The notes under the pieces are model-generated. The model was given only the letters and a program-made list of their open reading frames with translations. It did not search any database and was not told the DNA's origin. A stretch of DNA of 64,000 nt from Pseudomonadota bacterium (GTDB taxonomy: Bacteria > Myxococcota_A > UBA9160 > PR03): positions 2,646-66,645 of the forward strand of contig QEVM01000001.1 of assembly GCA_003576805.1 (NCBI GenBank). Reading direction: 5' to 3'. The translations under genes and the position numbers were made by a program. Below are positions 13,302 through 61,427 of this stretch, piece after piece; positions within the stretch are counted from its first letter, which is position 1, and every line of letters begins with the position of its first letter.

Positions 13302-13316
13302 ACTCCAGGAGAATCC

Positions 13317-23948: not shown

Positions 23949-24606
23949 CCGTGATCCCGCGCTGATGACGAACGCATCGTACCACTGCCTCGGGGTCACC
24001 GGACTCGAGCGCCCGGCGAAGCTCCTCGTCCCGTTGGCGATGGATGTTCAGCACGGTTCGAACCGCTCGTCGCACCTCGGGCTCGGGTTTCAAATTCACG
24101 CATGACTCCGGCGACAATACGCAGTGGCGTGGTCAGCCGGCGTCAGAGCAAAGTCCATGCCGCACGCTTCTCCAATCTCCCGAGCGGAACGTGCCGCTCG
24201 CCACCAATGTCAGCGTTCTTTGGTCCCCGGTCTCTAGCCAGCAGTGACCAAAGTTCGCGCTTCAGCCCCGTCGCGATGGACGACGACTCACCGCGAAGCT
24301 CCGATGGCTGCCGACCGCTCGTTTTCCTCTTCTCGTGTCGCGACTGTGCTGACCTCGGACGTCGTGCAGGTCTGCAGCGCCCTCGAGACGACCGCGCTCA
24401 CCGAGGCCGCAGGAAAGCCGCTCAATTCCTGCGCCCTTATCGGCGAATCTGCTTCTCTTGGCTGCTCTTGGCTTTCAAAAAATCATTTTAATCCGAGTGC
24501 TTAGCGCGGGTCGTGCCGGTGTAGTGGCCACGCCGTGGGCCTTCAGCCCTCGCCAGGGGAATGCCGGTTGGATCGCGTTTCGAGCCTGGCTCGTCGCCTC
24601 ACCGAG

Positions 24607-29558: not shown

Positions 29559-30636
29559 GGACCACGAGGCGACGCGCTCGCAGCTCACGGGCGAGCTCGA
29601 GTCGTCGGGCTACCGCGTCGTCGCCGCGCGCGACGGGCGCGAAGCGTTGGAGGCACTCCGCAGCGCACCCGTCGACCTGATCCTCAGCGATTACCGCATG
29701 CAGCCGATGGACGGGCTCTCGCTGCTCCGCGCCGTGCGCAAGACGCTCGAGGTCCCTTTCGTGCTGTACAGCGCTGGCGCCGACGCCCAGGCGGTCTTCG
29801 CGGCAGGCCGCGCCGGCGCGGTGCGCTTCCTCGAGTTCCCGTTCCGCGTCGCGGACCAGCTACTCCCGACGATCGCCGACACGCTCGCGTCTCGGGGCGC
29901 ACGCGAGCGCTCCGAACGCCGCGTCGGCGCCGAGCGCTTGATCGGATCCTCGGCCGCGATGCGTCGCGTGAAGGCGACCATCCGTCGCATCGCGCCCACC
30001 GCGACGACCGTCCTGATCCACGGCGAGACCAGTACCGGGAAGGAGCTCGTCGCGCGCGCGATCCACGAGGAGAGCGGTCGCGGTGCCTTCGTCTCGGTGT
30101 CGGTGCCGGAGCTATCCGACGGTGTCATGGAGAGCGAGCTCTTCGGCCACACGCGTGGCTCGTTCACGGGAGCGGTCGCGTCGCGCCAGGGACTCTTCGA
30201 GGCCGCGAGCGGCGGCACGCTCTTCCTCGACGAGATTGGCGACACACCGCTGCCCGTCCAGGTGAAGCTCCTCCGCGCGCTCGAGACGCGCGAGGTCCGC
30301 CCCGTCGGAGGAACGACTTCCCGCCGCGTGGACGTACGCATCGTCGCCGCAACCAATCGGGACCTCGCCGAGATGTCGCGCCGAGGCGCCTTCCGCGAGG
30401 ATCTCTTCTACCGCCTCCGCGGCGCAACGATTCAGCTGCCGTCGCTGCGCGCGCGGACGCGCGTGCGAGCCGTACCGCGAGTGGATCGAGGGCTCCGCGG
30501 CCCGCGGGCGCGACGCCGTGGCGATCTGGCGCGACCGGGTCCTCCAGGTCACCGTCTCCCCGTCGTCGGGGACGATCAGGGCCCCTCCAGCGACGCCTCA
30601 CTGCGATCTCCGCAGGATCGTGAGGAACGGCGCTGA
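29527..30636 (+). pseudogene. sigma-54-dependent response regulator (NtrC family), C-terminally truncated
   Basis: Receiver (LLVEDHE...[13 protein letters not shown]), AAA+ Walker [15 protein letters not shown], Walker B LFLDEIG. Family similarity stops after [16 protein letters not shown] (about nt 30456). The lid and HTH are absent and the remaining ORF is unrelated sequence. Confidence 0.75.
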
Positions 30637-31207
30637 CGTGAACGAAGAACCTCTCCGCGGAGCCGTGGCTGTCGGTACGACCGCCGACCTTGCGCGCTCG
30701 GCGCGCCGCGAGCGCAAGGCCGACGAGGAAGATCCCGTGGGCGGGGACGCCGATCAGCCAGTGGCCGGTGCGCCAGATTGGCTCCGTCGCGGCGACGTGG
30801 CCGAAGCGGAGCTCCCAGACGAAGAAGTCCCAGGGTGCGTAGATGGGTGCGACGGCGCAGGCGACGCAGAGGAGAGTCAGGGCAAGCAGGGACGGGGCGA
30901 AGCGTCGAGTGCGGGCGTGTGTCAGCGAAGCAAGCGCCGCTCCTCCCGCGCCGATCGCGGCGAAGAGCAGCCAAGGCTGCAGCGCCATGGACGGCGCGAA
31001 GAGCGGCGGCCCGAGCGCCGGCTGATACGCGAGCTTCCACGCCGCCCACTGGGTCCCGGCCCAGAGAACCAGGACGAGGGCGCCGAGCACGCCGACGAGG
31101 GAACCGACGAAGATGCCGGTGGCGGTGTTCCGCCGGCCGGAGGAGGGGAGGCGGTAGAGGCGAGTAGCAGACACGGCGCGCTTCCCCGTGGCGGGAACGC
31201 CGGTCAC
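30608..31207 (-). pseudogene. traG: TraG/VirD4-type coupling protein, N-terminal membrane fragment only
   Basis: GTQWAAWKLAYQPALG, IYAPWDFFVWELRFG and SHGSAERF match the TraG N-terminal blocks as I recall them (ATQYFAH.F.YQPALG, YAPWSIL.W, HGSARWA). There is no Walker A (PTRSGKG) or NTPase domain. The rest of the 347-aa ORF is antisense to the regulator gene. Confidence 0.65.
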
Positions 31208-31242
31208 CCGAGGGGTGGTGAGAGTATATCGCGGTAGGGGCG

Positions 31243-31385
31243 GTCAGCGTCCGTCGGCCGCGGTCCTGCTCGTGCTCGAGGTGGTCGAGCGCTCTCGACA
31301 GGATCGCCATCTGCTGAGCAGACCTGATCCGCTGAGGAGACCTGTGATCGGGCGTGTGCACGCGGAAGGTGAGCGGACAACTGCG
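31243..31385 (-). pseudogene. remnant of the 3' end of a second, diverged relaxase gene
   Basis: Encodes ..AILSRALDHLEHEQDRGRR, versus ..LTWALDDVEHEQDRGRER* at the end of the intact relaxase. By hand alignment 31256-31292 matches 42916-42952 at 32/37 nt, plus GTCAGCG 7/7. A 1-nt insertion displaces the stop frame. Confidence 0.55.
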
Positions 31386-31579
31386 GGCGAGCCAAGTGTT
31401 TCCGCGGGCTCAGACTCGCCTAGGAGGACCCTAAGAAATCCGGCGCGCGCTCCCGGACCATCCCCCGCATCGGGCACGAGGCGTTGTGCGCGCTCGTGGG
31501 CGCTTGGCGTCCTCCAGAACTGCCGGAGGGCGCGAGCACGGGCAAGGTCCGGGCTGAACGTGCTCTCGCATTGTGAGTA

Positions 31580-32248
31580 GTGTCCGGTATCTTGGCGGTA
31601 ACTGTGGTTACTACAAAGTCGCGCCCGCATCTTCTCCAGCGCAAGGAACGGCAAATCGCGCTTCGGCGCGAGCACATCCTCCAGGCGGCGGCTTCCGAGT
31701 TCGCGAGCAAGGGCTTCGACAGCGCGCAGGTTGGTGCGATTGCGTCCCAGGCCGAGGTCTCCTTGGCGAGCGTGTACGCGCTGTTCCCCAGTAAGGAGCA
31801 GCTGTTTCACGCGGTGATCGAGACGACGGCCCGGTCGATGCGCGATGCGGTTCGCGCGCGGGTCGAGGACGTTGCGGATCCGAGCGAGCGATTGCTGGCG
31901 CTCATCGACTCGCTGTTCGCCTGCTTCGAGGCGAACGGCGATCTGCTTCGGATCTATGCGCGCGCGACGCACGGTCTGCCGTGGCGGATTCGGCAGAGCA
32001 TGGGCGACTCGGCCCAAGAGATCTTCTCCGAGTTTACGAATTGGGTTCGGGATCTCGTTAGCGACGCACTACGACATGGTCGCTTTGGCGATGTCAGCAG
32101 CGAGGCACTCTGCCTCGCATTGATCGGCTCCGTCACAACGGCAGCGGCGGCGGTTGCGGAGGAGACCACGAGCCATTCCCTCGCAGAGATCGCCGCAGGA
32201 GTTCGTTCGCTCTTTTCGCGGCTGCTCGACGGAGGAGCTGACAGATGA
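31580..32248 (+). CDS. TetR/AcrR family transcriptional regulator
   Basis: RREHILQAAASEFASKGFDSAQVGAIASQAEVSLASVYALFPSKEQLF HTH. Start uncertain (GTG 31580 or 31604). Confidence 0.85.
   Translation: MSGILAVTVVTTKSRPHLLQRKERQIALRREHILQAAASEFASKGFDSAQVGAIASQAEVSLASVYALFPSKEQLFHAVIETTARSMRDAVRARVEDVADPSERLLALIDSLFACFEANGDLLRIYARATHGLPWRIRQSMGDSAQEIFSEFTNWVRDLVSDALRHGRFGDVSSEALCLALIGSVTTAAAAVAEETTSHSLAEIAAGVRSLFSRLLDGGADR
31598..31611. promoter_or_regulatory. inverted repeat GTAAC-TGTG-GTTAC overlapping the possible TetR start (candidate operator)
   Basis: Seen directly. 5-bp arms, positioned at the 5' end of the TetR-efflux operon. Confidence 0.3.
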
Positions 32249-33342
32249 AGCTCGCGCAGCTCATCCCCGCGCTCGCGATCGCCGCGTTTGCATGCAGCTC
32301 GCAGGAGGCCACCCCGTCCGCCGGCCAGAAACAAGCGGAGCCGATCGCAGTCGCGACCGCGATTGTCATGGCCGAAGAGTGGGCAGAACCGATCATCGGG
32401 ACCGGAACGGTCGCGGCCAGCAAGACCACCGACATCGGTCCGCTCGTCAGTGGCGTGATCGACGAGATCTTCGTCGCAGTCGGGAATCGCGTGCCTGCCG
32501 GAGCCCCGCTCTTTCATACGCGCGCCAACCACTACGAGAACCGCGTTGCCCAAGCGGAGTCGCAGCTGCGGCTCGCTCGCGCGGAAGTCGTGAACGCATC
32601 GCGCGAGCGCGGGCGCATCGGAGAGCTACACGAGAAGCACGTCGCATCGGATCAGCGCCGGGACGAGGTCGGCACCGCGTGGGAGATTGCGACCGCGCGG
32701 CGTGACCTCGCGGAAGCGATGCTCGCGGAGGCACGCCAGGATCTCGCCGACACCCTCGTCCGAGCGCCGTACGATGCCGTCATCACGCAGCGCTACGTGG
32801 ACGAGGGTACGATGCTGACGACGATGCTCTCGAGCTCGGCTCGTGTCGTCCAGATCATGAAGGTCGACCTCGTCATCGCGATCGTGCAGCTCCCTGAGAT
32901 CCACCTGCCCCGTATCCATGTGGGAACGCCGTCACGAGTGCGTGTCGCTGGAACAGCCACCGACTACGAGACCTATGTTGCCGTGTTGAACGATCGGGCA
33001 GATCCAGTCTCTCGGGCGTTCGAGGTGCGGCTCCCCATCGAAAACAAGGACCACACCCTCAAGCCCGGCCTGTCGGTCGAAGCGGAGCTCCGACCGGAGG
33101 CACGCAAGATCTCCACCCTCGACCGCGCGGCCGTGCTCGGGAGCGGTGAGTCCCGCTGGGTGTTCGTGCCGGAGGGAGATCACGCGGCACGCCGCGAGGT
33201 CCGCGTTCGCGAACTCGACGCGAGGCGCCTCGAAATCGTGGAAGGACTCATACCCGGGGATCAGGTGCTGGTTGGTTCGGATCTTTCGCGACTCGAGCCG
33301 GGCGTCCCGATCCGCATCGAGGGTTCCGTTGCGGATCGCTGA
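32245..33342 (+). CDS. efflux RND periplasmic adaptor (membrane fusion) lipoprotein
   Basis: Lipobox AIAAFAC, coiled-coil hairpin region, barrel-sandwich and beta-barrel segments. ATGA-type overlap with the TetR stop. Confidence 0.85.
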   Translation: MKLAQLIPALAIAAFACSSQEATPSAGQKQAEPIAVATAIVMAEEWAEPIIGTGTVAASKTTDIGPLVSGVIDEIFVAVGNRVPAGAPLFHTRANHYENRVAQAESQLRLARAEVVNASRERGRIGELHEKHVASDQRRDEVGTAWEIATARRDLAEAMLAEARQDLADTLVRAPYDAVITQRYVDEGTMLTTMLSSSARVVQIMKVDLVIAIVQLPEIHLPRIHVGTPSRVRVAGTATDYETYVAVLNDRADPVSRAFEVRLPIENKDHTLKPGLSVEAELRPEARKISTLDRAAVLGSGESRWVFVPEGDHAARREVRVRELDARRLEIVEGLIPGDQVLVGSDLSRLEPGVPIRIEGSVADR

Positions 33343-36300
33343 TGTCTCGATTCACCGGCCCGTCTTCGCGACGATGCTGGTTGGCAGCCTCGTTGTGCTC
33401 GGGGCCGTCTCGTACGGTCGTCTCGGGGTCGACCTCTTTCCGCACATCGAGTTCCCCTACGTAGCCGTCACGACGACTCTCGAGGGCGCCTCGCCCGACA
33501 CCATCGAGACCGAGGTGACCGACGTCATCGAGGAGGCACTGAACACGATCTCAGGGATCGAGGAGCTCCGCTCGGTGAGCTCCGAAGGTCTCTCGCAGGT
33601 CTTCCTTCAATTCGAGCTCGATGAGGACCCGGACGTGAAGGCGCAGGACGTGCGCGACAAGGTCGCGCGCGCCCGCGGCAAGTTGCCCGTCGATGCCGAG
33701 TCGCCGATCGTCGAGAAGATCGACCCCGACGCCGCGCCGATCCTCTCCGTCATGGTGGCGGGCCAGCTTCCGGTTCGTGAGCTCACCGATTTCGCGAAGC
33801 GCGTGGTCAAAGAGCGACTCCAGCGTGTACCCGGAGTGGGGTCGATCACGATCGTCGGTGGGCGGGAGCGCGAGATCCGCGTCTGGGCCGACGGTCCACG
33901 CATGCGTAGCCACGGACTCGCTGTCGACGAGGTGATTGCTGCGCTACGCGCCGAGCACGCCGAGGTGCCAGGAGGCTCGCTCGAAACAGGCGGCGGCCTC
34001 TCCGAGTTCGCGGTGAAGACGAAGGGGGAGGTCGAGTCAGTCCGTGGATTCGAAGGGATCACGGTTGCGTTCCGCGAGGGCCAGGCGACACGTTTGCGCG
34101 ACGTTGCGCGCGTCGAAGATGGCATGGAGGACGAGCGGTCCTACGCGGAACTGGATGGAACCCCCGGCGTCGCCCTCGAGGTTCGCCGGCAATCCGGACG
34201 GAATACCGTCGAGGTTGCGCGGCAGGTGAAAGCGGTCGTAGCCGAACTCCAGGGCGCAGCGCCAGCTGGCGTGGGCATCACCGTCGCGCGCGACATTTCA
34301 CGCTTCATCGAGGCGTCGGCTCACGACGTGGCCGTGGATGTCTTCCTGGGCGGGCTTCTGGCGGTGCTCGTAACGCTCGTGTTTCTCCGGAGCACGCGCG
34401 CGACGCTGATCGTCTCCGTCGCGATCCCCGCATCGATCGTCGCCACCTTCTTCCTCTTCTATCTGATGGGTTTCACGATCAACATCCTGACGCTGCTCGC
34501 GCTGTCCCTATCGACCGGGCTCCTGGTGGACGACGCAATCGTCGTCCTCGAGAACATCCATCGGCACATCGATGCGGGGATGTCTCCGCTCGAAGCTGCT
34601 TCTGCGGGGACGGCCGAAGTCGCGGGGGCCGTGATCGCGGCGACCGCAGCGGTGCTCGCGGTGTTCGTCCCGATCGCCTTCATGGAGGGCGTGATCGGGC
34701 GCTTCTTCTTCGAATACGGCCTCGCGATCTCCTTCGCCGTCGCCGTCTCGCTTCTGGTCGCGGTGACGCTCACGCCCACGCTCTGCGCGCGCGTGCTTCG
34801 ACGCGAGGAGCACCACGGGCGGGTCTTCCAGTGGTTCGACGACACCTACCGGGGCTGGGATGTTGGGTATGGAAAGGTCCTGGACCGGGCCCTCCAGCAT
34901 CGGCCTCTCGCGCTGTTGGTCGCCCTCCTGTCGATCCCCGTTGGTGTTCTCTTTGCGACAGGGGTTCCACTCGAGTTCTCAGGGAGAGTCGACCGAAGCG
35001 AGTTCGAGGGCATCGTCGAGCTTCCGCAGGGCGCCGGCGTCGGCGAAGCCAAACAGGTGGCTGCTCGAATCGGGCAGGCGCTTCGCGAAGTTCCCGGGGT
35101 GTCGACCACCTTCGTGTCGGTCGGCGGTGGAAGCCGCGGCGCCATCAACGAGATCAGCCTCTACGCCGGCCTGACCCCGAAGAACGCACGGGACGAGAGC
35201 CAGCTGGCCATCATGGAACTCGCGCGCGAGTCAGTCCGCCGCGCTGTTCCGAACGCGAAGAGCGTCAATGTGAACGAGGTCTCGTGGATCTCCGGAGGCG
35301 GCTTCACCTCGTACAACATGGAGTACGGAGTCCAGGGAGCAGATCTTGCAACACTGCAGAAGTTCACTGACGCAATCGTCACCCGCATGCGCGCCGACCC
35401 CAGCTTCATCGATACGAAGTCCAGCTTCGACCTCGGGAAGCCAGAGGTCCAGCTCCACATCGATCGCGCCCGGGCTGCCGACCTGGACGTCTCGACGAGG
35501 ACGCTCGCCAACACGGTCCGAGCCGTGGTGGGCGGAATGGACGTCGCGACCTACGAGGAAGATGGCACGCGCTACGACGTGCGATTGCGCGGCGAGGAGT
35601 CGCAGCGGGACAACCTGGCTGCACTGAGCCAGATCCAGGTGCGCTCCGCGAGCGGCGGGCTCGTGGAACTCGCGAACGTCGCAACCCTTCACATCGCCAG
35701 CGGTCCCGCGCGAATCGACCGCCTGAATCGTTCCCGCAAGATCTCGATCGTCGCCAACAACCCGGAGCACGTGGCACTCGGAATCGCCGTGAATCGACTC
35801 GACGAGATCGCGGCCGAGGTCGGGCTCCCGCCCGGCTACACCGGCGCGCACGAAGGCACCGCCAAGCGGATGAAGGACTCCGCACGAGCGGTGCTCTTTG
35901 CGTTCGCGATGGCGCTCGTTGCGCTCTATATGATCCTGGCCAGCCAGTTCAACAGCTTCCTGCAGCCGGCCGTGATCATGTTGACCGCACCACTCTCGTT
36001 CTCAGGCGCTTTTGCAGCGCTCTGGGTCACGGGCACACAGATGAGCATCTTCGCGCAGATCGGGCTCGTCGCGTTGATGGGCCTCGTGATGAAGAACGGC
36101 ATTCTGCTCGTGGACTACGCGAATCAGCTGCAGAAGCAGGGCGCGAGTACGCGCGACGCCATCCGCAACGCGGGTCCCGTTCGCCTGCGACCCGTCTTGA
36201 TGACGACCGTGGCGACGATTGCGGGCATGTTCCCGGTCGCGCTGGCGACGAGTGATGGATCCGAGTGGCGGAATCCGATGGGGATCCTCGTGATCGGCGG

Positions 36301-36463
36301 GCTCACGTCATCGACGGTGCTGACCCTGGTCGTGGTGCCTGTGGCGTACACGTACGTGGACGACATTCGCAACGCGCTGGCCCGCGCGAAGACGCTCGGC
36401 GGGCGGCTGGCTCCCGCCGCTCAGCGTCTACTCGGTGAGATTCGCTCTCGTCGGAAAGCGTAG
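33329..36463 (+). CDS. efflux RND transporter permease (AcrB/HAE1-like)
   Basis: (M)RIADVSIHRPVFATMLVG N-terminus, 12-TM/two-porter-domain layout, conserved GLLVDDAIVVLENI and LVMKNGILLVDYAN. In-frame TTG start at 33329. Confidence 0.9.
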   Translation: MRIADVSIHRPVFATMLVGSLVVLGAVSYGRLGVDLFPHIEFPYVAVTTTLEGASPDTIETEVTDVIEEALNTISGIEELRSVSSEGLSQVFLQFELDEDPDVKAQDVRDKVARARGKLPVDAESPIVEKIDPDAAPILSVMVAGQLPVRELTDFAKRVVKERLQRVPGVGSITIVGGREREIRVWADGPRMRSHGLAVDEVIAALRAEHAEVPGGSLETGGGLSEFAVKTKGEVESVRGFEGITVAFREGQATRLRDVARVEDGMEDERSYAELDGTPGVALEVRRQSGRNTVEVARQVKAVVAELQGAAPAGVGITVARDISRFIEASAHDVAVDVFLGGLLAVLVTLVFLRSTRATLIVSVAIPASIVATFFLFYLMGFTINILTLLALSLSTGLLVDDAIVVLENIHRHIDAGMSPLEAASAGTAEVAGAVIAATAAVLAVFVPIAFMEGVIGRFFFEYGLAISFAVAVSLLVAVTLTPTLCARVLRREEHHGRVFQWFDDTYRGWDVGYGKVLDRALQHRPLALLVALLSIPVGVLFATGVPLEFSGRVDRSEFEGIVELPQGAGVGEAKQVAARIGQALREVPGVSTTFVSVGGGSRGAINEISLYAGLTPKNARDESQLAIMELARESVRRAVPNAKSVNVNEVSWISGGGFTSYNMEYGVQGADLATLQKFTDAIVTRMRADPSFIDTKSSFDLGKPEVQLHIDRARAADLDVSTRTLANTVRAVVGGMDVATYEEDGTRYDVRLRGEESQRDNLAALSQIQVRSASGGLVELANVATLHIASGPARIDRLNRSRKISIVANNPEHVALGIAVNRLDEIAAEVGLPPGYTGAHEGTAKRMKDSARAVLFAFAMALVALYMILASQFNSFLQPAVIMLTAPLSFSGAFAALWVTGTQMSIFAQIGLVALMGLVMKNGILLVDYANQLQKQGASTRDAIRNAGPVRLRPVLMTTVATIAGMFPVALATSDGSEWRNPMGILVIGGLTSSTVLTLVVVPVAYTYVDDIRNALARAKTLGGRLAPAAQRLLGEIRSRRKA

Positions 36464-36476
36464 TCGAGGAAGGTGC

Positions 36477-36959
36477 ATGAAGCGGAAATGGATCGAATCC
36501 TATGACGTGTCGATCGCGCAGGGACTGTTCGCGGCGAACGCAAGCCTCGACGGACTCCCTGGTTTCCTGGGCGCGCAATTCGCCGAGTTCGGTCCTGGCA
36601 GGCTGCGCATCGAAATGCCGGTTCGGTCGGAGTTATTGACGCCGTTCGGGAGCTTGCACGGTGGTGTTCTGGCCGCACTCTGCGATCACGCACTGGGCTG
36701 CGTCTGTTATCCGCACATGCGCCGGGGACACTGGGCAGCGACGACGGAGTTCAAGCTCAACTATCTCGCTCCGGTGCGGTCCGGAACGGTACAGGTCGAA
36801 GCGCAGATCGTCTCCATGACGCGCACGACGGCGGTGGTCCGCATCGATGTGCACAATGAGGATCGACTCGCGGCCGTCGCCCAGGGGACGGTGTTGATTC
36901 GCGAAGGCCCAGCGGCGTCTAGCGAGCGAGCGCAGTCGGAAGCGACGCCAGGCGGCTGA
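36477..36959 (+). CDS. PaaI-family (hotdog fold) thioesterase
   Basis: FGSLHGGVLAALCDHALG...TTEFKLNYLAPV. GAGGAAGG RBS before ATG 36477. Confidence 0.8.
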   Translation: MKRKWIESYDVSIAQGLFAANASLDGLPGFLGAQFAEFGPGRLRIEMPVRSELLTPFGSLHGGVLAALCDHALGCVCYPHMRRGHWAATTEFKLNYLAPVRSGTVQVEAQIVSMTRTTAVVRIDVHNEDRLAAVAQGTVLIREGPAASSERAQSEATPGG

Positions 36960-38142
36960 AGATCGCGAAGCGCTCCCAGCGGACCTGCTCCTCCACTACG
37001 TGTGCACCCGGCGGAAGGAAGCTCAAGGCGGCGTCGAACATGCACGCGAGCTCCGTGCGAGCGAGGTTTACGCCGAGGCAGTAGTGCGGCCCATGACCGA
37101 AAATCGCGAGGTCGCGCGTATCGCGGCGGATGTCGAAGCGATCCGGGTCGGGGAAGACGGCCGGGTCGCGATGGGCTCCGAGGAAGCTCAGGAGAAGGAT
37201 CTGTCCCTTCCGAATGGTCTTGCCGCATAGTTCGAAATCGCGAATCGCGTAGCGCGGTAGCCCCAGCGATCCGAAGTCGAAGCGCAGAATCTCGTCCACC
37301 GCGTTCGGCATCAAGCGACCGTCCCCGCGCAGCAGCTCCATCTGATCAGGGTGCGCGAGGAGCGTGCGGAGGCCGTGCGTGCCGCCGATCGTCGTGGTCT
37401 CGGTGCCGGCTGCGACCAGACCCGCCACCATGAGCACGATCTCGTCGGTGCTCATCTGGTCGTTCTCGTCGTGCGTGAGCACGAGATCCGACACGAGATC
37501 TTCCTGCGGCTGCTTGCGTCGCTCGCCGGCCAGCGCCCGCACGTATTCGCAGAGTTCCGCCATCGAGTCTTCGGATCGCTTCCGCTCCTCCGCACTGAGG
37601 AACGGGCTGATTCCGCGCACGGCGTCGCGGCCGAGCTGTCGCCAGTGAAGCTCGTCGTCGCCCTTGGGCGGAACGCCCGTGATGCGACCGATGACCGTGT
37701 TGGGAATCGGCTCCGTGAACTCGTCATACAGGTCGACGACGCCGTCGCGGTCTCGGAGTGGTCGCGCGAATTCTTCGACGACGGCCCGGACCTGGCTCTC
37801 CATGCGCTTCACGGCCCGCGGCGTGAGCGCGGCCGAGACGAGGCGGCGCATGCGTGCGTGTTGATCCGGAGGCGCCGCGAACGGGCTGTTCTCGGCGATC
37901 CAGCGTGCCACGGAGCCCTCGGGAGGTGCGCTGTAGTGCTCGTACGCACGCCGGTCGTTGGTCACGTTCGGATCCGTGAAGAGCCGTCGTACGTCGTCCC
38001 AGCGCGTGATGATCCAAGCATTGAATCCGGGCAGCAGGTGAACGGGGTCCTCGTCGCGCACTCGCGCGAGTACGGCTGCCGGATTCTCGAAGTACTCGTC
38101 GGTGAGGAACGGGTCAGGCGCGAGCGCGTTCGGTGCTGCCAT
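36919..38142 (-). CDS. cytochrome P450
   Basis: AGTETT I-helix, ExxR (EILRFD), heme loop FGHGPHYCLGVNLA. ATG 38142 preceded by GGGAGG. The start lies 29 nt inside the upstream P450. Confidence 0.9.
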   Translation of the reverse strand: MAAPNALAPDPFLTDEYFENPAAVLARVRDEDPVHLLPGFNAWIITRWDDVRRLFTDPNVTNDRRAYEHYSAPPEGSVARWIAENSPFAAPPDQHARMRRLVSAALTPRAVKRMESQVRAVVEEFARPLRDRDGVVDLYDEFTEPIPNTVIGRITGVPPKGDDELHWRQLGRDAVRGISPFLSAEERKRSEDSMAELCEYVRALAGERRKQPQEDLVSDLVLTHDENDQMSTDEIVLMVAGLVAAGTETTTIGGTHGLRTLLAHPDQMELLRGDGRLMPNAVDEILRFDFGSLGLPRYAIRDFELCGKTIRKGQILLLSFLGAHRDPAVFPDPDRFDIRRDTRDLAIFGHGPHYCLGVNLARTELACMFDAALSFLPPGAHVVEEQVRWERFAIFSRLASLPTALAR

Positions 38143-39433
38143 GGGACCTCCCATTTCGAGCGGGCGTGAAGTGGATCGGGAGGCGCTTCGGGCCGCGCAG
38201 CAGGAACGAGTCGATGTAGGGCACGTTCGGCTCCGCCAGCTCGAAACCGGCCATCGCGCCGAGCAGCTCCTCGAAGGCGACGCGCGCCTCGAGCCGGGCG
38301 AGCGAGGCACCGAGGCAGAAGTGGATCCCAAAGCCGAATCCGAGATGCACGGTGTTGCTGCGCTCGATGTCGAATCGGTCGGGATCGGGGAACTGGCGCT
38401 CGTCGCGGTGCGCGGCGCCGATGCACGGCAAAACCGTCGAGTCCTTTGGGATTCGCACGCCGGCGAGTTCGGTATCGCGCGTCGCGCGTCGGAAGAGAAT
38501 CTGGATCGGGGCGTCGTAGCGGAGGATCTCTTCGACGAGTGCGGGGATTCGCTCCGGCTCTTGCTGCACCGCAGACAGCTGGGCTGCATTCCGCGACAAG
38601 GCGATCATTCCGTTGCCGATCAGGTTCGTCGTGGTCTCGTTCCCGGCGATCAGCAACAGGACGACGAACATCAGGACCTCCGTGGTAGAGAGCGCGGCCT
38701 CGCTCGCCTCGGCCGCAACGAGGGTCCCGATCAGATCGGAGCGCGGCTCGCTGCGCCTGCGTTCGATGGCCGTGCGCAGGTAGGCGTCGAGCTCGCGAAA
38801 GGCCTCGAACACGGTCTCTGGGCGGAGCCCTTCGGTCGATCCCGAGCCGCTCTGGATCAAGACGTCCGACCAGCGCTTGAAGTCTGCGCGGCGCTCGGTC
38901 TCGATCCCGAGGAGCTCTGCAATCACGGTGACGGGGAGCGGAATCGAGAAATCATGGACGAGGTCCATCTCACCCTTCTCGCGGACCGGCTCGAGACACG
39001 CGCGCGCGATCTCGCGAATACGCGGCTCAAGCGCTGCGATCCGCTTCGGTGTGAAGCCGCGGTTCACGAGACTGCGAAGCGGACCGTGGATCGGCGGGTC
39101 GGACGCGATCAGCATGCGGGACTTCAGAAATTCGCCGAGCGGGATTGGCATCTGCTGGAAGAGTTCGAGCATGCGCGCCGCATCGGCGCCTTGAAAGCCG
39201 AGCCCCGACGCCTGCGTGCCGACTCCGAGACCGCTCATCATGATCGTCATCATCGCGGTCGACGAGAACAAGTCGGGCTGCTTGAACACGCGCATCACGT
39301 CGTCGTAGCGAGTCACCATGAAGAATCCGCTCGGCTCGGACCGATACACCGGAGCCTCGCGGCGCAGTCTCTCGTAGTGCGGATAGGGATCCTTCGAGAT
39401 CTGCGGGTCAAACGGATCGATGGCGATGCTCAT
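38114..39433 (-). CDS. cytochrome P450
   Basis: AGNETTTN, EILRYD, FGFGIHFCLGASLA. Close paralogue of the next gene. Confidence 0.9.
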   Translation of the reverse strand: MSIAIDPFDPQISKDPYPHYERLRREAPVYRSEPSGFFMVTRYDDVMRVFKQPDLFSSTAMMTIMMSGLGVGTQASGLGFQGADAARMLELFQQMPIPLGEFLKSRMLIASDPPIHGPLRSLVNRGFTPKRIAALEPRIREIARACLEPVREKGEMDLVHDFSIPLPVTVIAELLGIETERRADFKRWSDVLIQSGSGSTEGLRPETVFEAFRELDAYLRTAIERRRSEPRSDLIGTLVAAEASEAALSTTEVLMFVVLLLIAGNETTTNLIGNGMIALSRNAAQLSAVQQEPERIPALVEEILRYDAPIQILFRRATRDTELAGVRIPKDSTVLPCIGAAHRDERQFPDPDRFDIERSNTVHLGFGFGIHFCLGASLARLEARVAFEELLGAMAGFELAEPNVPYIDSFLLRGPKRLPIHFTPARNGRSHGSTERARA

Positions 39434-40701
39434 GCGACACTCCGATGCGGGGCGAAGCGGATCGGAAGTGACCGCGGTCCGCGGAGGAGATTCGACTCGA
39501 TCACGTTGACCTCCTCGGCGTCGAGGCGGAAGTCGCGGCAGCGATCGAAGAGGGTCTCGAACGCAACTCGTGCTTCCAACCGAGCGAGCGCTGCACCGAG
39601 GCAGAAGTGGATGCCGTGGCCGAACGCCACGTGCTCTCGGGACTTGCGATCGATGTCGAAGCGATCCGGCTCCGGGAACTGCCGCTCGTCGCGGTTCGCA
39701 GACGCGAAGAGCACCATGAGGAAGGCGTCCTTCGGCAGCTTCGTGCCGCCCAGCTCCACCTCCTCGACCACCTTGCGCGGGATGCCCTGGATTGGCGAGT
39801 CGTAACGGAGCGCCTCTTCGAGCATCGCCGGGATTCGCGAGCGGTCGGCGGCGACACGTTCCATCACATCCGGGTGCGCGAGCATCGCTCGCATCGCGTT
39901 GCCGATCAGATTCGTCGTCGTCTCGTTGCCTGCAATCAGCAGGAGGACGATGAACGATAGAACCTCGCCGCCCGTGAGTGCGTCGCCTTCCTCGGCTTGC
40001 GTGAGGATGCTGATCAGATCGTCACGTGGGCTGCTCCTCCGCGCCGCGACAACCGACTCGATGTAGTCGGCCATTTCGTCCGCCGCAGCGGCCACCTCTG
40101 CGCGACCGAAGGCCTGTGACGTTCCGGAGAGCCCGATCACGATTGCATCGGACCAGTGCTTGAATCGCTCGCGGCGCTCGGGCTCGACACCCAGGAGCTC
40201 CGCGATCACGGTCACCGGAAACGGAATCGCGAAGTCCTTCACCAGGTCCATCTGCCCGGTGGCGACGACTGAATCCAAGCATGTCTCGGCGATCGCGCGG
40301 AGGCGGGGCGCCAGCGCAGACATGCGCCTCGGGGTGAAGCCGCGGTTCACGAGGTTACGCAGCCGCGTGTGATCCGGGGGGTCTGTCGCGATCATCATCG
40401 ACGACTGGAGAAGCCGGTGGCCCGCGAGCGCGCCCGAGTTCGGGCCGAAGCTGATGCCGCCACCTTGGGCGAGGATCTGAAGCGCTGTCGAGGAGAAGAC
40501 CTCGGGTCGATGAAGCACTGAGCAGACGTCGTCATAGCGCGCGACGGCGTAGAACGGAGCGCCAGGCAGAATCTGGTGGATCGGCGACTCGCGTCGCATC
40601 GCGGCGTAGTACGGATACGGGTCGTGCCGGACCGTTGGTAGCAACGGGTTGTAGTCACTCGCCGACACGAGGTTCTTGGACGACAGAGCGGGAATCGACA
40701 T
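39430..40701 (-). CDS. cytochrome P450
   Basis: AGNETTTN, EALRYD, FGHGIHFCLGAALA. 4-nt overlap with the downstream P450. Confidence 0.9.
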   Translation of the reverse strand: MSIPALSSKNLVSASDYNPLLPTVRHDPYPYYAAMRRESPIHQILPGAPFYAVARYDDVCSVLHRPEVFSSTALQILAQGGGISFGPNSGALAGHRLLQSSMMIATDPPDHTRLRNLVNRGFTPRRMSALAPRLRAIAETCLDSVVATGQMDLVKDFAIPFPVTVIAELLGVEPERRERFKHWSDAIVIGLSGTSQAFGRAEVAAAADEMADYIESVVAARRSSPRDDLISILTQAEEGDALTGGEVLSFIVLLLIAGNETTTNLIGNAMRAMLAHPDVMERVAADRSRIPAMLEEALRYDSPIQGIPRKVVEEVELGGTKLPKDAFLMVLFASANRDERQFPEPDRFDIDRKSREHVAFGHGIHFCLGAALARLEARVAFETLFDRCRDFRLDAEEVNVIESNLLRGPRSLPIRFAPHRSVA

Positions 40702-40719
40702 CCAGGCTTCCTCCTGGGC

Positions 40720-42030
40720 CTACGCCCTTCCACGGCTTCGGAATTCGAGATGGGCGTACTCTGCGCGCGCCTCGGCAAGCGCTCCCTCGACGCGGTCTGC
40801 AAGGGATCGCACACCCGTCCAGATCCACCGCTCCGGCGCGACCTCTTCGAGATCTCCGAGCGCCGCGAGGTCCTGCACCCATGCAGCTGCCTCGTCGTGC
40901 GCGATCACGAGACGGAACGTGCTGCCTCCGACCTTCCAGATCGGGTAGTGCGAGCGACCGCCCCACGCTAGGTCGAGAACGCGCATGGCTTCGCTCGTGT
41001 GCTCTTCGAGGACGGAGTAGATCGCGGGAATGCGCTCCGAGAAGATCTCGAGATCGCGCATCGCCATCCGCTTGGGATTTGTGAAGACGATCTCGTGGCT
41101 CGGGTACGAGATGTCCTCGTCCACGTCGAGCGCGAGCAGGCGCCGACTCGATTCGAGGTAGCGGAGCACGCCGCAGTGCTCGGGCGGCACACCGGCGAGG
41201 GAAGCGAGCGTCCCCGGTGTGACGAGTGAAGTCGTCGCCGGAAGCCACATGTCGCCCGTGATGAGATGACCGCGATCGACGCGCACGCAGAGATGACCGG
41301 GAATGTGGCCGTCGAAGCGCAGGAGCTCGATGCGGCCGTCGGCGAGCGAAACGACCTCGAGACCAGGATCGATCTCCTGGTCCACCCGGAGCGGCCCCTC
41401 GTCCATGCTGCCCCAGGGCGCACGATCGAAGTCGAGGCCCGAGTTGCGCATGAGCGCGAGGTAGTGATCGCGGATCTCGCCCGTGAGACGTTCTACATCG
41501 ACGTCGATCCCGCAGTCTCGGAAGAAGGGGATCCGAGTCCGCAGGAAGGACTCACGGCGCGCGACCAAGGGGAAAAGTTCGCTCGTGTAGCGGTGGGCAA
41601 CCGTGGTCGCGCCGCTCCCGAGCGCTTCGATGGCGGCGTGACCTCCCGCGTGATCGAAGTGCGCGTGCGTGTAGATCGCGATGATCGGTCGCTCGCCGAG
41701 ACTTCGGCCTTCCGCGCGCACGATCTCTTCGAGCGTTTCCGGAAAGATCTCGGGCGCCGTCGTCCTATAGGTCGAATCGACGACGAACAGGAAGTCGGGA
41801 AGCGAGACGATGTGGCAGGCGACCGAGAACGAGCTTGCGCCGATGGGAGTTCCGCCCTCACCAAAACGCTCCTGCAGGTAGCGCGAGGTCGGCGTGTCGA
41901 AACGGTCGAGGACCACCGCGAGGGGGCTCGGCATGCGGCCACCAGGGCCCGAGAAGGCACCCGACTCGGCCTCGATGCGATAAATGCGAAGACCGTCCCT
42001 GCTGCGTGCTGCCTCGCGCGATTGGATCAT
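40720..42030 (-). CDS. MBL-fold metallo-hydrolase with long C-terminal extension
   Basis: IYTHAHFDHAGG (HxHxDH), later GHIPGH and ..HEIVF.. ligand candidates. 436 aa. Confidence 0.8.
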   Translation of the reverse strand: MIQSREAARSRDGLRIYRIEAESGAFSGPGGRMPSPLAVVLDRFDTPTSRYLQERFGEGGTPIGASSFSVACHIVSLPDFLFVVDSTYRTTAPEIFPETLEEIVRAEGRSLGERPIIAIYTHAHFDHAGGHAAIEALGSGATTVAHRYTSELFPLVARRESFLRTRIPFFRDCGIDVDVERLTGEIRDHYLALMRNSGLDFDRAPWGSMDEGPLRVDQEIDPGLEVVSLADGRIELLRFDGHIPGHLCVRVDRGHLITGDMWLPATTSLVTPGTLASLAGVPPEHCGVLRYLESSRRLLALDVDEDISYPSHEIVFTNPKRMAMRDLEIFSERIPAIYSVLEEHTSEAMRVLDLAWGGRSHYPIWKVGGSTFRLVIAHDEAAAWVQDLAALGDLEEVAPERWIWTGVRSLADRVEGALAEARAEYAHLEFRSRGRA

Positions 42031-42665
42031 GTGGATTCATCCGGCAAGGCGACCTCAGCGGCGAGATCGGGCCACGCTTCCGGTCGCAGCACGCCGAAGA
42101 GCAGCACGCGCTTCACCTCGCGGGCTAGGCGCTCGGTGGCGCGTTCCATGGCCTCAGGAGTCTCGTGTGCGGCACGCGCGAGCAGTGGCCAGAGAATGCC
42201 GACGCTCATCAACACGTAGCCAAGCATTTCCACATCGACACCGGGCTGCGCTTTCGCGTTGCTGGTGATCCGCCGCAGCTCGCCGAGGTATTGCTCCCAG
42301 GCATCGCGGGGAAGCGGATTTGCCGAGATGAGCTGATGGAGAGTGAGTTGCGTGACTTCGGGGTGCTCGACGAAGAACCGCGCCATGTGGTCGATCCGTT
42401 CGCCGATCGGCATCGGTGCGACGAGCATGCGAGCCACGTCCTGAGCCAGGTCCGCAAACACGGCGGCGACGAGCTCGTCGCGCGTTCGGAAGTGCTGATA
42501 GGCCGTCGTCCGGTTGAGCGTCGCCCGGTGCGCCACCTCTGAGACGGTGACGGCTGCGGGGCCTCGCTCCGCCATGAGCTCGCGTGCGGTGCGCAGTAGG
42601 CGCTCGCGACTGGACCGGTAGTCACGGCGTCGGATCCGGTCGGGCAGTTGCGTCGGCTTCGGCAT
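42027..42665 (-). CDS. TetR/AcrR family transcriptional regulator
   Basis: SRERLLRTARELMAERGPAAVTVSEVAHRATLNRTTAYQHFRTRDEL HTH. 4-nt overlap with the MBL gene. Confidence 0.85.
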   Translation of the reverse strand: MPKPTQLPDRIRRRDYRSSRERLLRTARELMAERGPAAVTVSEVAHRATLNRTTAYQHFRTRDELVAAVFADLAQDVARMLVAPMPIGERIDHMARFFVEHPEVTQLTLHQLISANPLPRDAWEQYLGELRRITSNAKAQPGVDVEMLGYVLMSVGILWPLLARAAHETPEAMERATERLAREVKRVLLFGVLRPEAWPDLAAEVALPDEST

Positions 42666-42700
42666 CAGAAGCCGAGCCTATCCAATTCTCACAATTAAAG

Positions 42701-42716
42701 TCAACATCGGTGTTGA
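42701..42716. promoter_or_regulatory. perfect inverted repeat TCAACA-TCGG-TGTTGA upstream of the TetR-MBL-P450 operon (candidate TetR operator)
   Basis: Seen directly in an AT-rich patch about 36 nt upstream of the TetR start codon. Confidence 0.4.
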
Positions 42717-42904
42717 ACTTCTAGAGCTGCCGACCCGCTGGCGATGGCCGCGTCCCCGAGCCACCGGATCTCCGGAGAACGGCCCACCGGCCAAAACAAA
42801 CGTACCGGCCGCCAGGAGAGCCTCCCGCGAGCCACCGAGCGGATTCTCGGAGTCAACTCAGCGGTGTGTAGGTGACCTGGGCCTGTTGCCCTAGACGGGC
42901 GTCG

Positions 42905-44860
42905 TCAGCGCTCGCGACCGCGGTCTTGCTCGTGCTCGACATCGTCGAGCGCCCAGGTGAGCGTTCGACGCTCGCGGCTTTCCTGCTCCGCGGTGACCTC
43001 GGCCCGCGCGCGGACGGCATGGCCCACCTCGAGGTCTCGGCGGTCCGTCGGGACTGCGGTCAACTCCTGCCCGGTGTCGAGTACGACGTAGCTCTTGCCG
43101 TCGTCGTCGACGGCGTAGCCGACGACGGGGCCTTGGTGGGCGCGGCCGGGCTCGGCCCTGGTCGTACTGCTCTCCTTGCCATGGATGCGCTCCAAATCAC
43201 GCAGCGTCGTCGGAACGCGCTCGCCGCGAATCATTCTTCCCTCGACCATCCGCTCCGCTCCTTTCTCGACTTCATAGGTTCTCTCGGCTCCTTCGTCGCG
43301 ACTTCGACGCAGGAGGCCCTCCCGCTCGAGCACAGGTCCGCGCGCGCGGACTGCGGCGCGCCATTGGCGGAAGAAGCCGCGGCGGTCGGGGGCCGGAGAG
43401 GGAAGGGCGCCGGTCTCTCGCACGGATCGAAGGGCATCGCGGTCGAGCAAGGTGGAGGCGGTCTCCGCGCGCTTCAAGTCGCGTAGCGGGCCATGCTCGA
43501 GGATCTCGGTCCGCATCGCGCGGTCTCCGGTGCGGGTGGCCGCGCCGCCGCGCAGTGTCACAACGGAGCCGGGCCGGAGGCGGCCCTCTCCGCGGGCCGT
43601 GACGATCTCCGTTGTCTGCGGGATCAGATGGCGACGGCCATCCGTGCCCTCGACGATCAGCAGCGGCTCGTCGCGGGACTCGTCGATCCCGCCTCCGGTC
43701 ACGCGGCCCGTGACCTCCACGCCCGCCAACATACGCGTCAGCACCACCGGCGCGTCCCGATCGGACACCAAGGTGCGCGAGCGCGCGAGGCTCTTCTGCA
43801 CGTCACCAGCGATCTGGATCTGCCGGAGCGCCGGGACAAGTTCGGGGGAGAGGTGCCAGCGTTTGGGTCCAAGCCGTTCTGCGAGGCCGATGCTTTCCAG
43901 ATACTGAAGCCTACGCAGGTCCTGCTGCCGACGCTCTTGGGCGACGGGTCGCGACGGCACCCCATCGTCGAAGGACACGGTCCCACCCGCGTCCGCTCGT
44001 CCGAGGAGCGAGCGGTCGATCTCCGTGAGCCGCGGCGCCGAGATCGCATTCTCGCGCGCTCGCCGGTACTCGTGCTCCTGCCGATGCCCGAGCGTCCGCG
44101 TCAGGAGCTCCTGACTGCGCGCCCGAATGCCCGTCCGGATGTAGTCGCGCGCGAGGAGGAGGGCCTTGCCTTCCTCGTCTACGCCGCGCACCACGATGTG
44201 TACGTGAGGGTGCGCCGTGTCGTGGTGATCGATCGCCACCCACTCGAGCCGGGTGCCAAGATCGTACTCGATCTGCGCCATCAGCTGCCGCGCGTGGCCG
44301 CTGAGATCGGCCCGCGCCCCTGCCTCGGGTGAGACGACGATCTTCCAGAGGCGCGCATCGCCGGCCTTCTGCCAAGCGTCGAGCCGCTCGGGAAGGTCGA
44401 GGTCATCGCGCTCCGCATCGAATCCCAGCCCCCGCGCGTCCTCGCGCTGTGCACCCGCGCGGCTCAGGTAACGGCCCTGTGCCCGCCAGGCTCCGCGTCC
44501 CTTATTCCGCGCGAACGACATCTTCACGAGGCTGCGCTGTTGGAGCGGTGACGACGTGGTCGTGAACGCGATGGGGCCTCGAGCGCGCCGGTGTCCGCGC
44601 TGATGCGCGCCGAGCTCCGCGGACAGGCGCTGCAGTGCCCGAGCTGACCGCCCTCCGCTCTCGCGCGCGATCCGCGAAGGTCGCAGACGCATCGAGGGAG
44701 CGTCCCGATCGGAGGTCGAGCGACTACCACTTCGTTGCGCGAGCGCCGGCGACGAGAGTTCGGGGCCACGCTTGTGCTCTCTGTGGTGGCCATGATCAAC
44801 CGCCTGGCCGGCATCCGATCGCGCCGAGCCAGGCTTCGCGGTCGGCGACCGCGGGCTCAC
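42905..44860 (-). CDS. conjugative relaxase (VirD2/MobP-like relaxase domain with large C-terminal extension)
   Basis: RLWKIVVSPE...WVAIDHHDTAHPHVHIVVRGVD histidine-triad motif. N-terminal MRLRPSRIARE block typical of ICE relaxases of this type. The ATG at 44860 overlaps the traF stop by 4 nt (alternative start 44692). Confidence 0.8.
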   Translation of the reverse strand: MSPRSPTAKPGSARSDAGQAVDHGHHREHKRGPELSSPALAQRSGSRSTSDRDAPSMRLRPSRIARESGGRSARALQRLSAELGAHQRGHRRARGPIAFTTTSSPLQQRSLVKMSFARNKGRGAWRAQGRYLSRAGAQREDARGLGFDAERDDLDLPERLDAWQKAGDARLWKIVVSPEAGARADLSGHARQLMAQIEYDLGTRLEWVAIDHHDTAHPHVHIVVRGVDEEGKALLLARDYIRTGIRARSQELLTRTLGHRQEHEYRRARENAISAPRLTEIDRSLLGRADAGGTVSFDDGVPSRPVAQERRQQDLRRLQYLESIGLAERLGPKRWHLSPELVPALRQIQIAGDVQKSLARSRTLVSDRDAPVVLTRMLAGVEVTGRVTGGGIDESRDEPLLIVEGTDGRRHLIPQTTEIVTARGEGRLRPGSVVTLRGGAATRTGDRAMRTEILEHGPLRDLKRAETASTLLDRDALRSVRETGALPSPAPDRRGFFRQWRAAVRARGPVLEREGLLRRSRDEGAERTYEVEKGAERMVEGRMIRGERVPTTLRDLERIHGKESSTTRAEPGRAHQGPVVGYAVDDDGKSYVVLDTGQELTAVPTDRRDLEVGHAVRARAEVTAEQESRERRTLTWALDDVEHEQDRGRER

Positions 44861-45411
44861 TTGGGATCACCTGCCGATCGCGTCATCAGCGGGCGAGCGA
44901 TCGCGACGATGCTCGCGGCGGAGACGGGCCCGAAGTAGCGGCTATCCCAGCTGCGCTCGCGACGAATGCCGAGAAGCCAGACCTCACCGTCGCAGACGAG
45001 GCGGCGCCCGAAGGGGACGTGCTCGAGCGGGCGGCCGAGGCTGTCCGTCGAGTGACGTCGCGAGCGATCGACGACTCGACCGTTGACGGCGAGGAAGTCG
45101 CGCTTCAGCTCGACGTCGTCGCCGGCGACTGCGATCACCTGCTTGAGCACCGGGCTCGTTCCACTCGAGCACGAGCCGGCCGACAGGTATCCGCGGGCGA
45201 ATCCGAGAGCTGCGACCCAGTCCGGCAGGCAAGCCGCGACCAAGTCGTTCCGCTCGATGCCGGCCGCGCGTTGGATCGAGTAGACGCCCAGAGGTGCCGA
45301 GGTCGTCCAGTTGATGCGAACCGGCAGCGCGGTAGCGAGCCAGATCGTGGTCGAAGCGGCCGCGATCGCGGGGATCGCGGCGGCGCGGCGCTTTGCAGGT
45401 CCGACCGACAC
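44857..45411 (-). CDS. traF: S26-family signal peptidase, conjugal TraF type
   Basis: N-terminal TM, NWTTSAPLGVY, VKQVIAVAGDDV, SWDSRYFGPV motifs. Confidence 0.8.
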   Translation of the reverse strand: MSVGPAKRRAAAIPAIAAASTTIWLATALPVRINWTTSAPLGVYSIQRAAGIERNDLVAACLPDWVAALGFARGYLSAGSCSSGTSPVLKQVIAVAGDDVELKRDFLAVNGRVVDRSRRHSTDSLGRPLEHVPFGRRLVCDGEVWLLGIRRERSWDSRYFGPVSAASIVAIARPLMTRSAGDPK

Positions 45412-45418
45412 TCGCGAC

Positions 45419-45649
45419 TCATTGCGGCCGCGGTGGCGTCGCTTCGGACGTGGACCGCCGGCGACCGCCTTCGATGCACGCCTCGAGATCCTTGACGTCG
45501 TACCGCACCGAGTGCCCGAGCTTCACGAAGCGCGGACCGCTGCCCTGCAGACGCCACTTCTGGAGCGTCCGCATGCTCACCCCGAGCAGCTCCGAGGCAT
45601 CGCGCACCGTGACGAGTCGAGACACGGGCCGCTGCTTCCGCAAGGCCAT
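45419..45649 (-). CDS. helix-turn-helix DNA-binding protein (AlpA/excisionase-like)
   Basis: LVTVRDASELLGVSMRTLQKWRLQGSGPRFVKLGHSVRYDVKDLEACI. Confidence 0.75.
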   Translation of the reverse strand: MALRKQRPVSRLVTVRDASELLGVSMRTLQKWRLQGSGPRFVKLGHSVRYDVKDLEACIEGGRRRSTSEATPPRPQ

Positions 45650-61425: not shown

Positions 61426-61427
61426 CT

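Follow-up and report, generated by a model that had tools for sequence, protein, structure and literature searches.

A relaxase 3'-end remnant beside traG: a probable recombination scar in an apparently decayed integrative conjugative element

Why should a bacterial genome carry the 3' end of a conjugative relaxase gene twice, once on the gene itself and once on the far side of 11.6 kb of unrelated genes, directly in front of traG? The question is raised by contig QEVM01000001.1 (assembly GCA_003576805.1), of which we analyzed positions 2,646 to 66,645, a stretch of 64,000 nucleotides (nt) that we call the window throughout. The window has a guanine-cytosine (GC) content of 71%, and amid sequence of ~75% GC it contains an island of lower GC (65-70%), ~23 kb in size, at ~22.4-45.7 kb. 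Read from the right, on the minus strand, the island consists of a helix-turn-helix (HTH) gene, traF, a gene for a putatively RlxS-type relaxase, a block of cargo genes, the second relaxase end and a stub of traG, with a gene for a large serine recombinase at its left edge. In the reading that we favour, at a probability of roughly 65%, the second relaxase end is an old recombination scar between related elements, left beside the cargo in a decayed integrative conjugative element (ICE).

Two diverged copies of the relaxase gene end

The intact relaxase gene (42905-44860, minus strand) encodes 651 amino acids (aa) with the Pfam domains Relaxase (MobA/VirD2) and DUF3363. A preliminary description of this DNA, made by hand alignment, had reported that the end of this gene recurs in front of traG, and had advised comparing the window with itself. 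The self-comparison by BLASTN matched 42897-42952, that is, the last 15 codons, the stop and 8 nt downstream of the gene on the minus strand (copy 1), with 31238-31292 in direct orientation, 47 of 57 positions being identical (82.5%, E 2.4e-5). The relaxase-derived part of the second copy (copy 2), as delimited by BLASTN and local alignment, is a pseudogene remnant of 49 nt at 31244-31292 on the minus strand. Reading the sequence bore out the details reported earlier: 32 of 37 nt agree between 31256-31292 and 42916-42952, the string GTCAGCG is present in both copies (31243-31249 and 42904-42910), and a 1-nt indel separates the two blocks, whereby the TGA of copy 2 is out of frame. The minus-strand peptides are ..ALDDVEHEQDRGRER, followed by the stop, in copy 1 and ..ALDHLEHEQDRGRR, with one additional nt ahead of the TGA, in copy 2. 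The longest identical run shared by the copies is 13 nt (TCGAGCACGAGCA).

The similarity exceeds what is expected by chance for this base composition. With copy 2 as the query, the best match in the window was copy 1 at 47.3 bits and the next real match reached 30.7 bits, while the best match in 200 windows simulated with a Markov-1 model averaged 27.5 bits (sd 2.2, maximum 36.2). Smith-Waterman alignment of the relaxase end with the 400 nt upstream of traG gave a score of 34, where the null obtained by shuffling was 11.9 (sd 1.5). The repeated motif is part of the relaxase gene, since close relatives of the protein end in ..W[AV][LI]DD[VLIA]EHERDRGRGR followed by the stop. As had been surmised, the copies do not have the appearance of a fresh target-site duplication: they are identical at 47/57 positions with indels, and not short identical repeats. 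Besides this relaxase-end repeat, no further repeats were found at the cargo boundaries.

Both copies contain a palindrome, GCTCGAC-ATC-GTCGAGC in one and GCTCGA-GGTGG-TCGAGC in the other, which the preliminary description had read as a conserved hairpin. The palindromes are there, but support from covariation is absent: the palindrome occurs in most of 12 relaxase 3' ends, with 78.7% of the cells paired, and covariation falls below the shuffle mean, for which reason we rejected the hairpin as a functional structure. The palindrome follows from the conserved peptide L-D-D-V/L-E-H, whose codons are reverse complements of one another.

The remnant, the pre-traG leader and the traG stub

Copy 2 lies where the stop of a relaxase gene would be expected ahead of traG. 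A stub of TraG had been recognized previously at a distance of 37 nt; the stub is real, but the remnant stop lies 69 nt upstream of it, because homology sets the traG start at the GTG at 31174 and not at 31207. The stub (30656-31174, minus strand, 173 codons) covers the transmembrane region. In tblastn searches, residues 7-174 of the TraG of L001 matched 31159 to 30656 (50.6%, E 1e-43) and residues 1-173 of that of L073 matched 31174 to 30656 (64.7%); the stub also matched the NCBIfam model of the IncP-type TraG N-terminus (E 1.4e-11) and is 84% identical at the aa level to protein P0001. These and the other comparators, numbered with the prefix L, are throughout metagenome contigs or metagenome-assembled genomes (MAGs). 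The stub ends ..TDSHGSA, right before the GSARWA motif, and no more TraG homology was found anywhere in the window. The homology stops 20 nt from the stop of a convergent gene for a sigma-54 response regulator (29122-30636, plus strand), the junction being at 30636-30656. Together with a histidine kinase gene (27783-29558, plus strand) and a gene for an MMPL protein (24697-26439, plus strand), this gene forms a block at 24.7-30.6 kb that stands where the rest of traG and the expected genes of a type IV secretion system (T4SS) would be.

Copy 2 is closer to the relaxase gene of another contig than to the one in its own window. It agrees with the 3' end of the intact L063 relaxase gene at 45 of 49 positions (91.8%, E 5e-12), with that of L064 at 85.7% and with copy 1 at 82% (over the 57-nt match). 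The codon state GTC is common to copy 1, L062 and L059 (GAT-GTC), whereas copy 2 has the clade-typical CTC (Leu). At another codon both window copies encode Gln (CAG and CAA), and every relative, including the remnant on L060, has Arg (CGG); a short tract of gene conversion between the two copies might explain this, as might a parallel G>A change.

The relaxase homology of copy 2 begins exactly at GCGCTCGAC, and the sequence upstream of this point is unrelated to relaxase genes. The remnant is shared with an independent contig: L060, which is Ga0315290_10149219 of JGI 3300031834, carries an orthologous remnant with the identical 5' breakpoint before its own traG, the product of which is 84% identical to the window stub. 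Positions 125-794 of L060 correspond to 31326 to 30656 of the window at 84.3%, and pairwise and MAFFT alignments show that the non-relaxase segment adjoining the remnant (31293-31370, minus strand) is common to both contigs, at least ~65 nt of sequence upstream of the remnant being shared. A local tandem duplication of 18 nt (CAGGTCTCCTCAGCGG / ATCAGGTCTGCTCAGCAG) lies in this segment of the window, at ~31308-31325 on the minus strand, and is not present in L060.

Between the remnant and traG lies a conserved leader (31175-31243, minus strand), composed of a CCGCGATATACT box, then CCCCTCGGATGACCGG, then the inverted repeat TTCCCGCC..GGGAA directly before the GTG start. It was conserved in all 11 of the traG upstream regions aligned (window, L001, L060-L062, L064, L066, L068, L070, L072 and L073). 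Since it is present whether the space between relaxase gene and traG is empty or filled, the leader is probably the promoter or operator of traG. A promoter and terminator scan of 30900-31700 found nothing.

A variable slot between relaxase gene and traG

The junction of relaxase gene and traG had been proposed as a hotspot for cargo capture, with the suggestion that the junctions of related elements be aligned. In the alignment, cargo sits at the same gene junction in the filled elements, and the hotspot inference holds because unrelated DNA follows the relaxase gene directly in seven relatives. In five of the seven, the insert ends just upstream of traG on contiguous sequence. These inserts measure 5.3 kb in L062 (DUF4062, ThiF, E2-like and HTH genes), 4.2 kb in L064/L065 (SNase, rhomboid), 4.1 kb in L070 (six PEP-CTERM proteins), 4.8 kb in L072 (extracytoplasmic function (ECF) sigma factors, AraC, a methyltransferase) and 1.2 kb in L073 (one gene). 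The contigs of the other two stop before any traG: in L071 an ECF sigma factor and an IS91 transposase fill the sequence to the contig end, and in L063 at least 5.3 kb, with an 848-aa metallo-beta-lactamase (MBL)-fold protein and others, extend to the contig end. Relaxase aa identity to the window within this filled-slot clade is 66-89%, protein P0003 on L062 being 89% identical; DUF3363 relaxases from a plasmid database were at most 45% identical over half of the protein and stood in other contexts.

In contrast to these filled slots, traF, relaxase gene and traG are contiguous with a short spacer in L001, L066, L068 and ~30 more distant Binataceae-type loci, relaxase gene and traG being adjacent in more than 30 relatives. 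The ancestral order is traF-relaxase-traG, and the space between the last two serves as a cargo slot in a sub-clade. By relaxase identity (72%), the empty-slot L066 falls between the filled-slot elements. A scan of metagenomes with a traG-start motif returned three contigs, namely L060, the empty-slot junction L068 and one chance hit.

The closest view of the slot boundaries comes from L062, whose backbone matches the window on both flanks of the cargo and not inside it (45344 to 42893 at 87.5%, and 31234 to 30657 at 84.7%). On the relaxase side, an 83-nt post-stop segment (42822-42904, minus strand) precedes the cargo proper. L059 shares the whole of this segment by BLASTN, its positions 10005-11008 corresponding to 43822 to 42822 of the window at 88%; as the L059 relaxase gene lacks its 5' part and the sequence around it is not collinear with the window, the use of this contig was confined to these 83 post-stop nt. 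The L062 match, which stops at 42893, includes only the first 12 nt of the segment. A tblastx comparison of L059 with the window gave only high-GC noise and was discarded.

Two relatives show additional relaxase-derived sequence at the slot. L063, which is syntenic with the right flank of the window (the host side, with the sigma-54 enhancer-binding protein and beyond) at ~80% nt identity, has an internal second relaxase fragment of 273 nt (17062-17334). This fragment is 94.5% identical to the relaxase gene of L063 itself; the intact gene lies 5.3 kb upstream of it, and the contig ends 125 nt away. In L073, an imperfect direct repeat of 36 nt, comprising the relaxase stop and intergenic sequence, stands on either side of the single cargo gene (score 20, null 11.4, sd 1.5).

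Of the full TraG proteins, that of L062 passes the PRK13876 model (681 bits, cutoff 674). Over the ~5-8 kb that follow traG in L062, L064 and L073, no trb genes were found. Other features of these loci lie outside the question of the remnant. The slot cargo of L062 (3776-7246) has a defence-like look (DUF4062, ThiF/E1-like, Prok-E2_E), and downstream of its traG (11810-13608) there is a Gabija-like pair of an OLD-TOPRIM ATPase and a UvrD helicase. A distant branch of long DUF3363 relaxases in Myxococcota MAG loci (L002-L019) lacks a neighbouring traF or traG; within ~1 kb after the relaxase gene comes a gene for a recombinase of the tyrosine or serine type, the relaxase gene of L002 is preceded by an IS91 transposase, and these loci look like small mobilisable elements.

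Origin and age of the remnant

The reading that we favour treats the window at ~22.4-45.7 kb as what would be the remnant of a decayed ICE with an RlxS-relaxase, TraF and IncP-type TraG backbone. Copy 2 would stem from a relaxase gene that formerly reached to traG and whose 3' end has since been displaced and has lost its frame. As to the route and order of events, we infer that two related elements recombined, with one crossover in or beside the relaxase gene and a second join, an illegitimate one, 49 nt ahead of the stop of the resident relaxase gene. The insert would thus have ended up between an intact relaxase gene with its own 3' end and the old 3' end together with the traG leader. The slot content would have been replaced since the scar formed, and in later steps traG would have been truncated at 30656 and the T4SS genes lost; an element so reduced would no longer be self-transmissible.

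Several observations bear on the age of the scar. Because L060 carries the remnant with the same breakpoint, the scar predates the split between the window and L060, and for the same reason the present cargo was not necessarily its maker. The divergence between copy 1 and copy 2 mostly predates pseudogenisation, given that the traG stub is still an open frame of 173 codons. The open stub and the clade-typical CTC that copy 2 retains indicate that this divergence mostly reflects different lineages and not decay in place. The second fragment of L063 and the flanking repeat of L073 seem likewise to favour recombination between related elements. The preliminary description had offered accretion or recombination between two related elements as the origin of the copies; this view gains from the closeness of copy 2 to the L063 end and from the second fragment on that contig, but a mosaic breakpoint is missing and an ancient local duplication stays in contention.

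Several points tell against a scar between two lineages. Sliding-window identity of the intact traF-relaxase region against L062, L063, L064 and L066 revealed no mosaic breakpoint. The lineage assignment depends on a handful of sites, since only 49-57 nt are usable, and the Gln codon common to both copies hints at gene conversion or at a closer kinship than we propose. The remnants of L062, L064 and L070 are only ~12-17 nt long and not individually significant. L060 covers only 124 nt upstream of its remnant. Finally, all comparators are of metagenomic origin, and both window junctions are seen in one assembly, L074 confirming only the cargo interior (33.1-38.9 kb).

A history without a second element is unlikely in our view, although it accounts for part of the data. 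When cargo first entered the slot, in an ancestor common to the sub-clade, the relaxase 3' end and the intergenic region would have been duplicated; the downstream copy would have been kept through its fusion to the traG leader or promoter, and copy 1 would have diverged under selection. In all filled-slot elements a ..C(C/G)GCTGA string precedes the CGCGATATACT box by 9-11 nt, and in empty slots the relaxase stop lies 33-60 nt from this box, which suggests one shared ancestral event. The pre-traG strings of L062 and L073 are very alike despite relaxases that are 89% and 66% identical to that of the window, and the Gln codon unites the two window copies. Such a duplication is harder to reconcile with copy 2 being nearer to the intact L063 end (45/49) than to copy 1, and lacking the GAT-GTC state that copy 1 shares with L062 and L059. 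The extra internal fragment of L063 shows, moreover, that second relaxase copies arise at this locus, and the empty-slot L066 (72%) is intermediate among filled-slot elements (66-89%) by relaxase identity. More doubtful is a model in which circular cargo with a relaxase-end-like arm finds an attachment or homology site in the relaxase stop region, integrates there in the manner of Campbell through ~50 nt of homology or by a dedicated recombinase, leaves a hybrid repeat on each side and can be released again when these repeats recombine. It is weakly suggested by the cargo beginning 0-14 nt after the relaxase TGA and ending just before a second ..GCTGA in every filled element. The window cargo does lie between imperfect direct repeats (57 nt), as does that of L073 (36 nt), the breakpoint of copy 2 falls right where the palindrome GCGCTCGAC has its 5' edge, and the copies share the identical run of 13 nt. 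Set against this, no recombinase or transposase was found in the window cargo (31293-42904), whose boundaries show no other repeats, and the remnant varies in length (49 nt versus ~12-17 nt) as a fixed att site would not, so that the relaxase 3' end does not present itself as an integrase-type attL/attR pair. The palindrome lacks covariation and is accounted for by codons, and the post-stop junction sequences have no motif in common.

The extended form of this model, in which the stop region is a dedicated capture site and cargo cycles as circles via the imperfect direct repeats, as in an integron-like cassette position, strikes us as less probable again; were it true, the slot between relaxase gene and traG would be an exchangeable cassette position common across Myxococcota ICEs. 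We consider it barely credible that the match arose by chance in GC-rich DNA, or that the assembly wrongly joined two contigs at a short sequence shared by relaxase genes. A GC content of 71% does inflate random matches, repeats are typical chimera points in metagenome assemblies, of which the source may be one, and the L063 contig stops shortly after its second relaxase fragment. Yet the observed score lies well above the simulated maximum (47.3 versus 36.2 bits), an independent relaxase gene, that of L063, matches copy 2 at 45/49, and the arrangement of remnant and traG recurs on the independent contig L060; nor would an assembler collapse the two copies, because they are 18% diverged. Read as a recombination scar in a dead element, the remnant involves no new mechanism. 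It is a handy marker that gives polarity and relative age of cargo gain, and it could serve to locate slot boundaries automatically.

Gene content of the cargo and its surroundings

The cargo has the content given in the preliminary description, as confirmed with Pfam. On the plus strand (31580-36959) it encodes a TetR regulator (31580-32248), a membrane-fusion protein (32245-33342), a resistance-nodulation-division (RND) pump (33329-36463) and a 4HBT thioesterase (36477-36959), the starts of the last two being taken from P0123/L074 (99% aa identical). On the minus strand (36919-42665) follow a second TetR regulator (42027-42665), an MBL-fold protein (40720-42030) and three cytochromes P450 (39430-40701, 38114-39433 and 36919-38142), with boundaries taken from the near-identical contig L074. 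A search for homologues of the RND pump returned only L074 as a near-identical internal fragment, and the next best match was at 71%; the search carries no information on the junctions or on the origin of the cargo.

At the right end of the island, an open reading frame (ORF) of 76 aa (45419-45649, minus strand) encodes an excisionase/RdfS-like protein with an HTH_17 domain (Pfam, 40.3 bits, cutoff 27), and homologous small ORFs lie upstream of traF in L062 and L073 as well. The adjoining traF (44857-45411, minus strand) encodes a conjugative signal peptidase (Pfam Peptidase_S26; NCBIfam TIGR02771 TraF_Ti, 131.9 bits, cutoff 100.25) and overlaps the relaxase start by 4 nt. At the left edge, the large serine recombinase gene (22386-24047, minus strand; Pfam Resolvase and Recombinase) is the sole recombinase gene of the island. 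No T4SS domains were found among the island ORFs scanned, and no par or rep genes among the ORFs scanned.

An inverted self-match of 514 nt (29983-30472 versus 46754-46253) was considered as a mobile-element repeat and rejected, as it joins two regulators whose sigma-54 AAA+ domains are paralogous. Most self-BLAST hits of the window stem from two large FG-GAP repeat proteins, encoded on the minus strand at 58147-62748 (1533 aa) and 51378-53141; the gene for the former contains 147/291-nt tandem repeats at 60376-61171 with a strong AT skew. An OLD-family nuclease of 566 aa (5907-7607, minus strand; AAA_15/AAA_21 and an OLD-like TOPRIM) lies in a stretch at ~6.0-8.0 kb with a GC content of 58-62%, within a region of ~75% GC, and looks like a separately acquired defence-type gene.

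Comparison with known elements

To our knowledge, the conjugative elements of Myxococcota have barely been described. The slot cargo of the elements compared here is very diverse, with efflux pumps and P450s, ThiF/E2-type genes, PEP-CTERM proteins, ECF sigma factors and a nuclease.

The nearest precedent for the arrangement is found in the ICEs of the Tn4371 family (Toussaint 2003; Ryan et al. 2009, PMC2789088), in which traF and the relaxase gene are followed by a variable region, traR, traG and the trb genes (Ryan et al. 2009, PMC2789088). That variable region, with its pumps and catabolic genes, has been termed a likely hotspot for insertion and recombination (PMC2789088). The hotspot proposed for the window is thus real but not new, as it corresponds to this variable region after the relaxase gene and before traR/traG (PMC2789088). 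The likeness extends to a traF directly before the gene for a DUF3363 relaxase, in the window a putatively RlxS/VirD2-like one, traF being recognized by TIGR02771 in the window, to accessory genes between relaxase gene and traG that often include RND efflux pumps and degradative enzymes, as they do here, and to an IncP-type traG after the variable region, of which the window holds 173 codons only. The differences are also several. The host is of high GC and probably belongs to Myxococcota, whereas Tn4371 hosts are beta- and gamma-proteobacteria. The best NCBIfam model for the window relaxase, relax_RlxS, gives 237 bits, below its cutoff of 850. No traR precedes the window traG, with only the 49-nt remnant and the 69-nt non-coding leader between cargo and traG, and neither a full-length TraG nor trbBCDEJLFGI is present in the island ORFs scanned. 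Neither the tyrosine integrase Int(Tn4371), with its 8-bp attB TTTTTCAT, nor parA, parB and repA were found among the ORFs scanned, and the sole recombinase of the island is the large serine recombinase. We know of no report of a relaxase 3'-end remnant at the traG-side junction in Tn4371.

A second point of comparison is offered by the ICEMlSymR7A-type ICEs of Mesorhizobium, which have an rdfS-traF-msi107-rlxS unit (PMC8627217); frequent recombination, duplication and pseudogenisation between related ICEs are documented (PMC8627217). In the window, a short HTH gene of excisionase-like type, traF and a putatively RlxS-type relaxase gene occur in that order, the HTH gene being a candidate counterpart of rdfS. 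It differs in that no msi107 transglycosylase gene separates traF and the relaxase gene, which overlap by 4 nt instead, and in that traG adjoins the relaxase gene in relatives of the window, while the traG of ICEMlSymR7A lies with the distant trb cluster.

The SXT/R391 ICEs provide an analogy of organization. Unrelated cargo occupies fixed intergenic slots in their conserved backbone, and recombination between ICEs yields mosaics; this backbone, with a MOBH relaxase and an F-type T4SS, is unrelated to that of the window. We know of no gene-end remnant that has served as a marker at the SXT/R391 hotspots.

Given the state of traR, the trb and par/rep genes and the tyrosine integrase, the window element is not a member of the Tn4371 family in the strict sense. 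It is a decayed relative of the Tn4371/ICEMlSymR7A-type backbone, and with it the architecture of traF and RlxS relaxase, cargo and traG is extended from proteobacterial Tn4371-type ICEs to high-GC, probably Myxococcota, elements.

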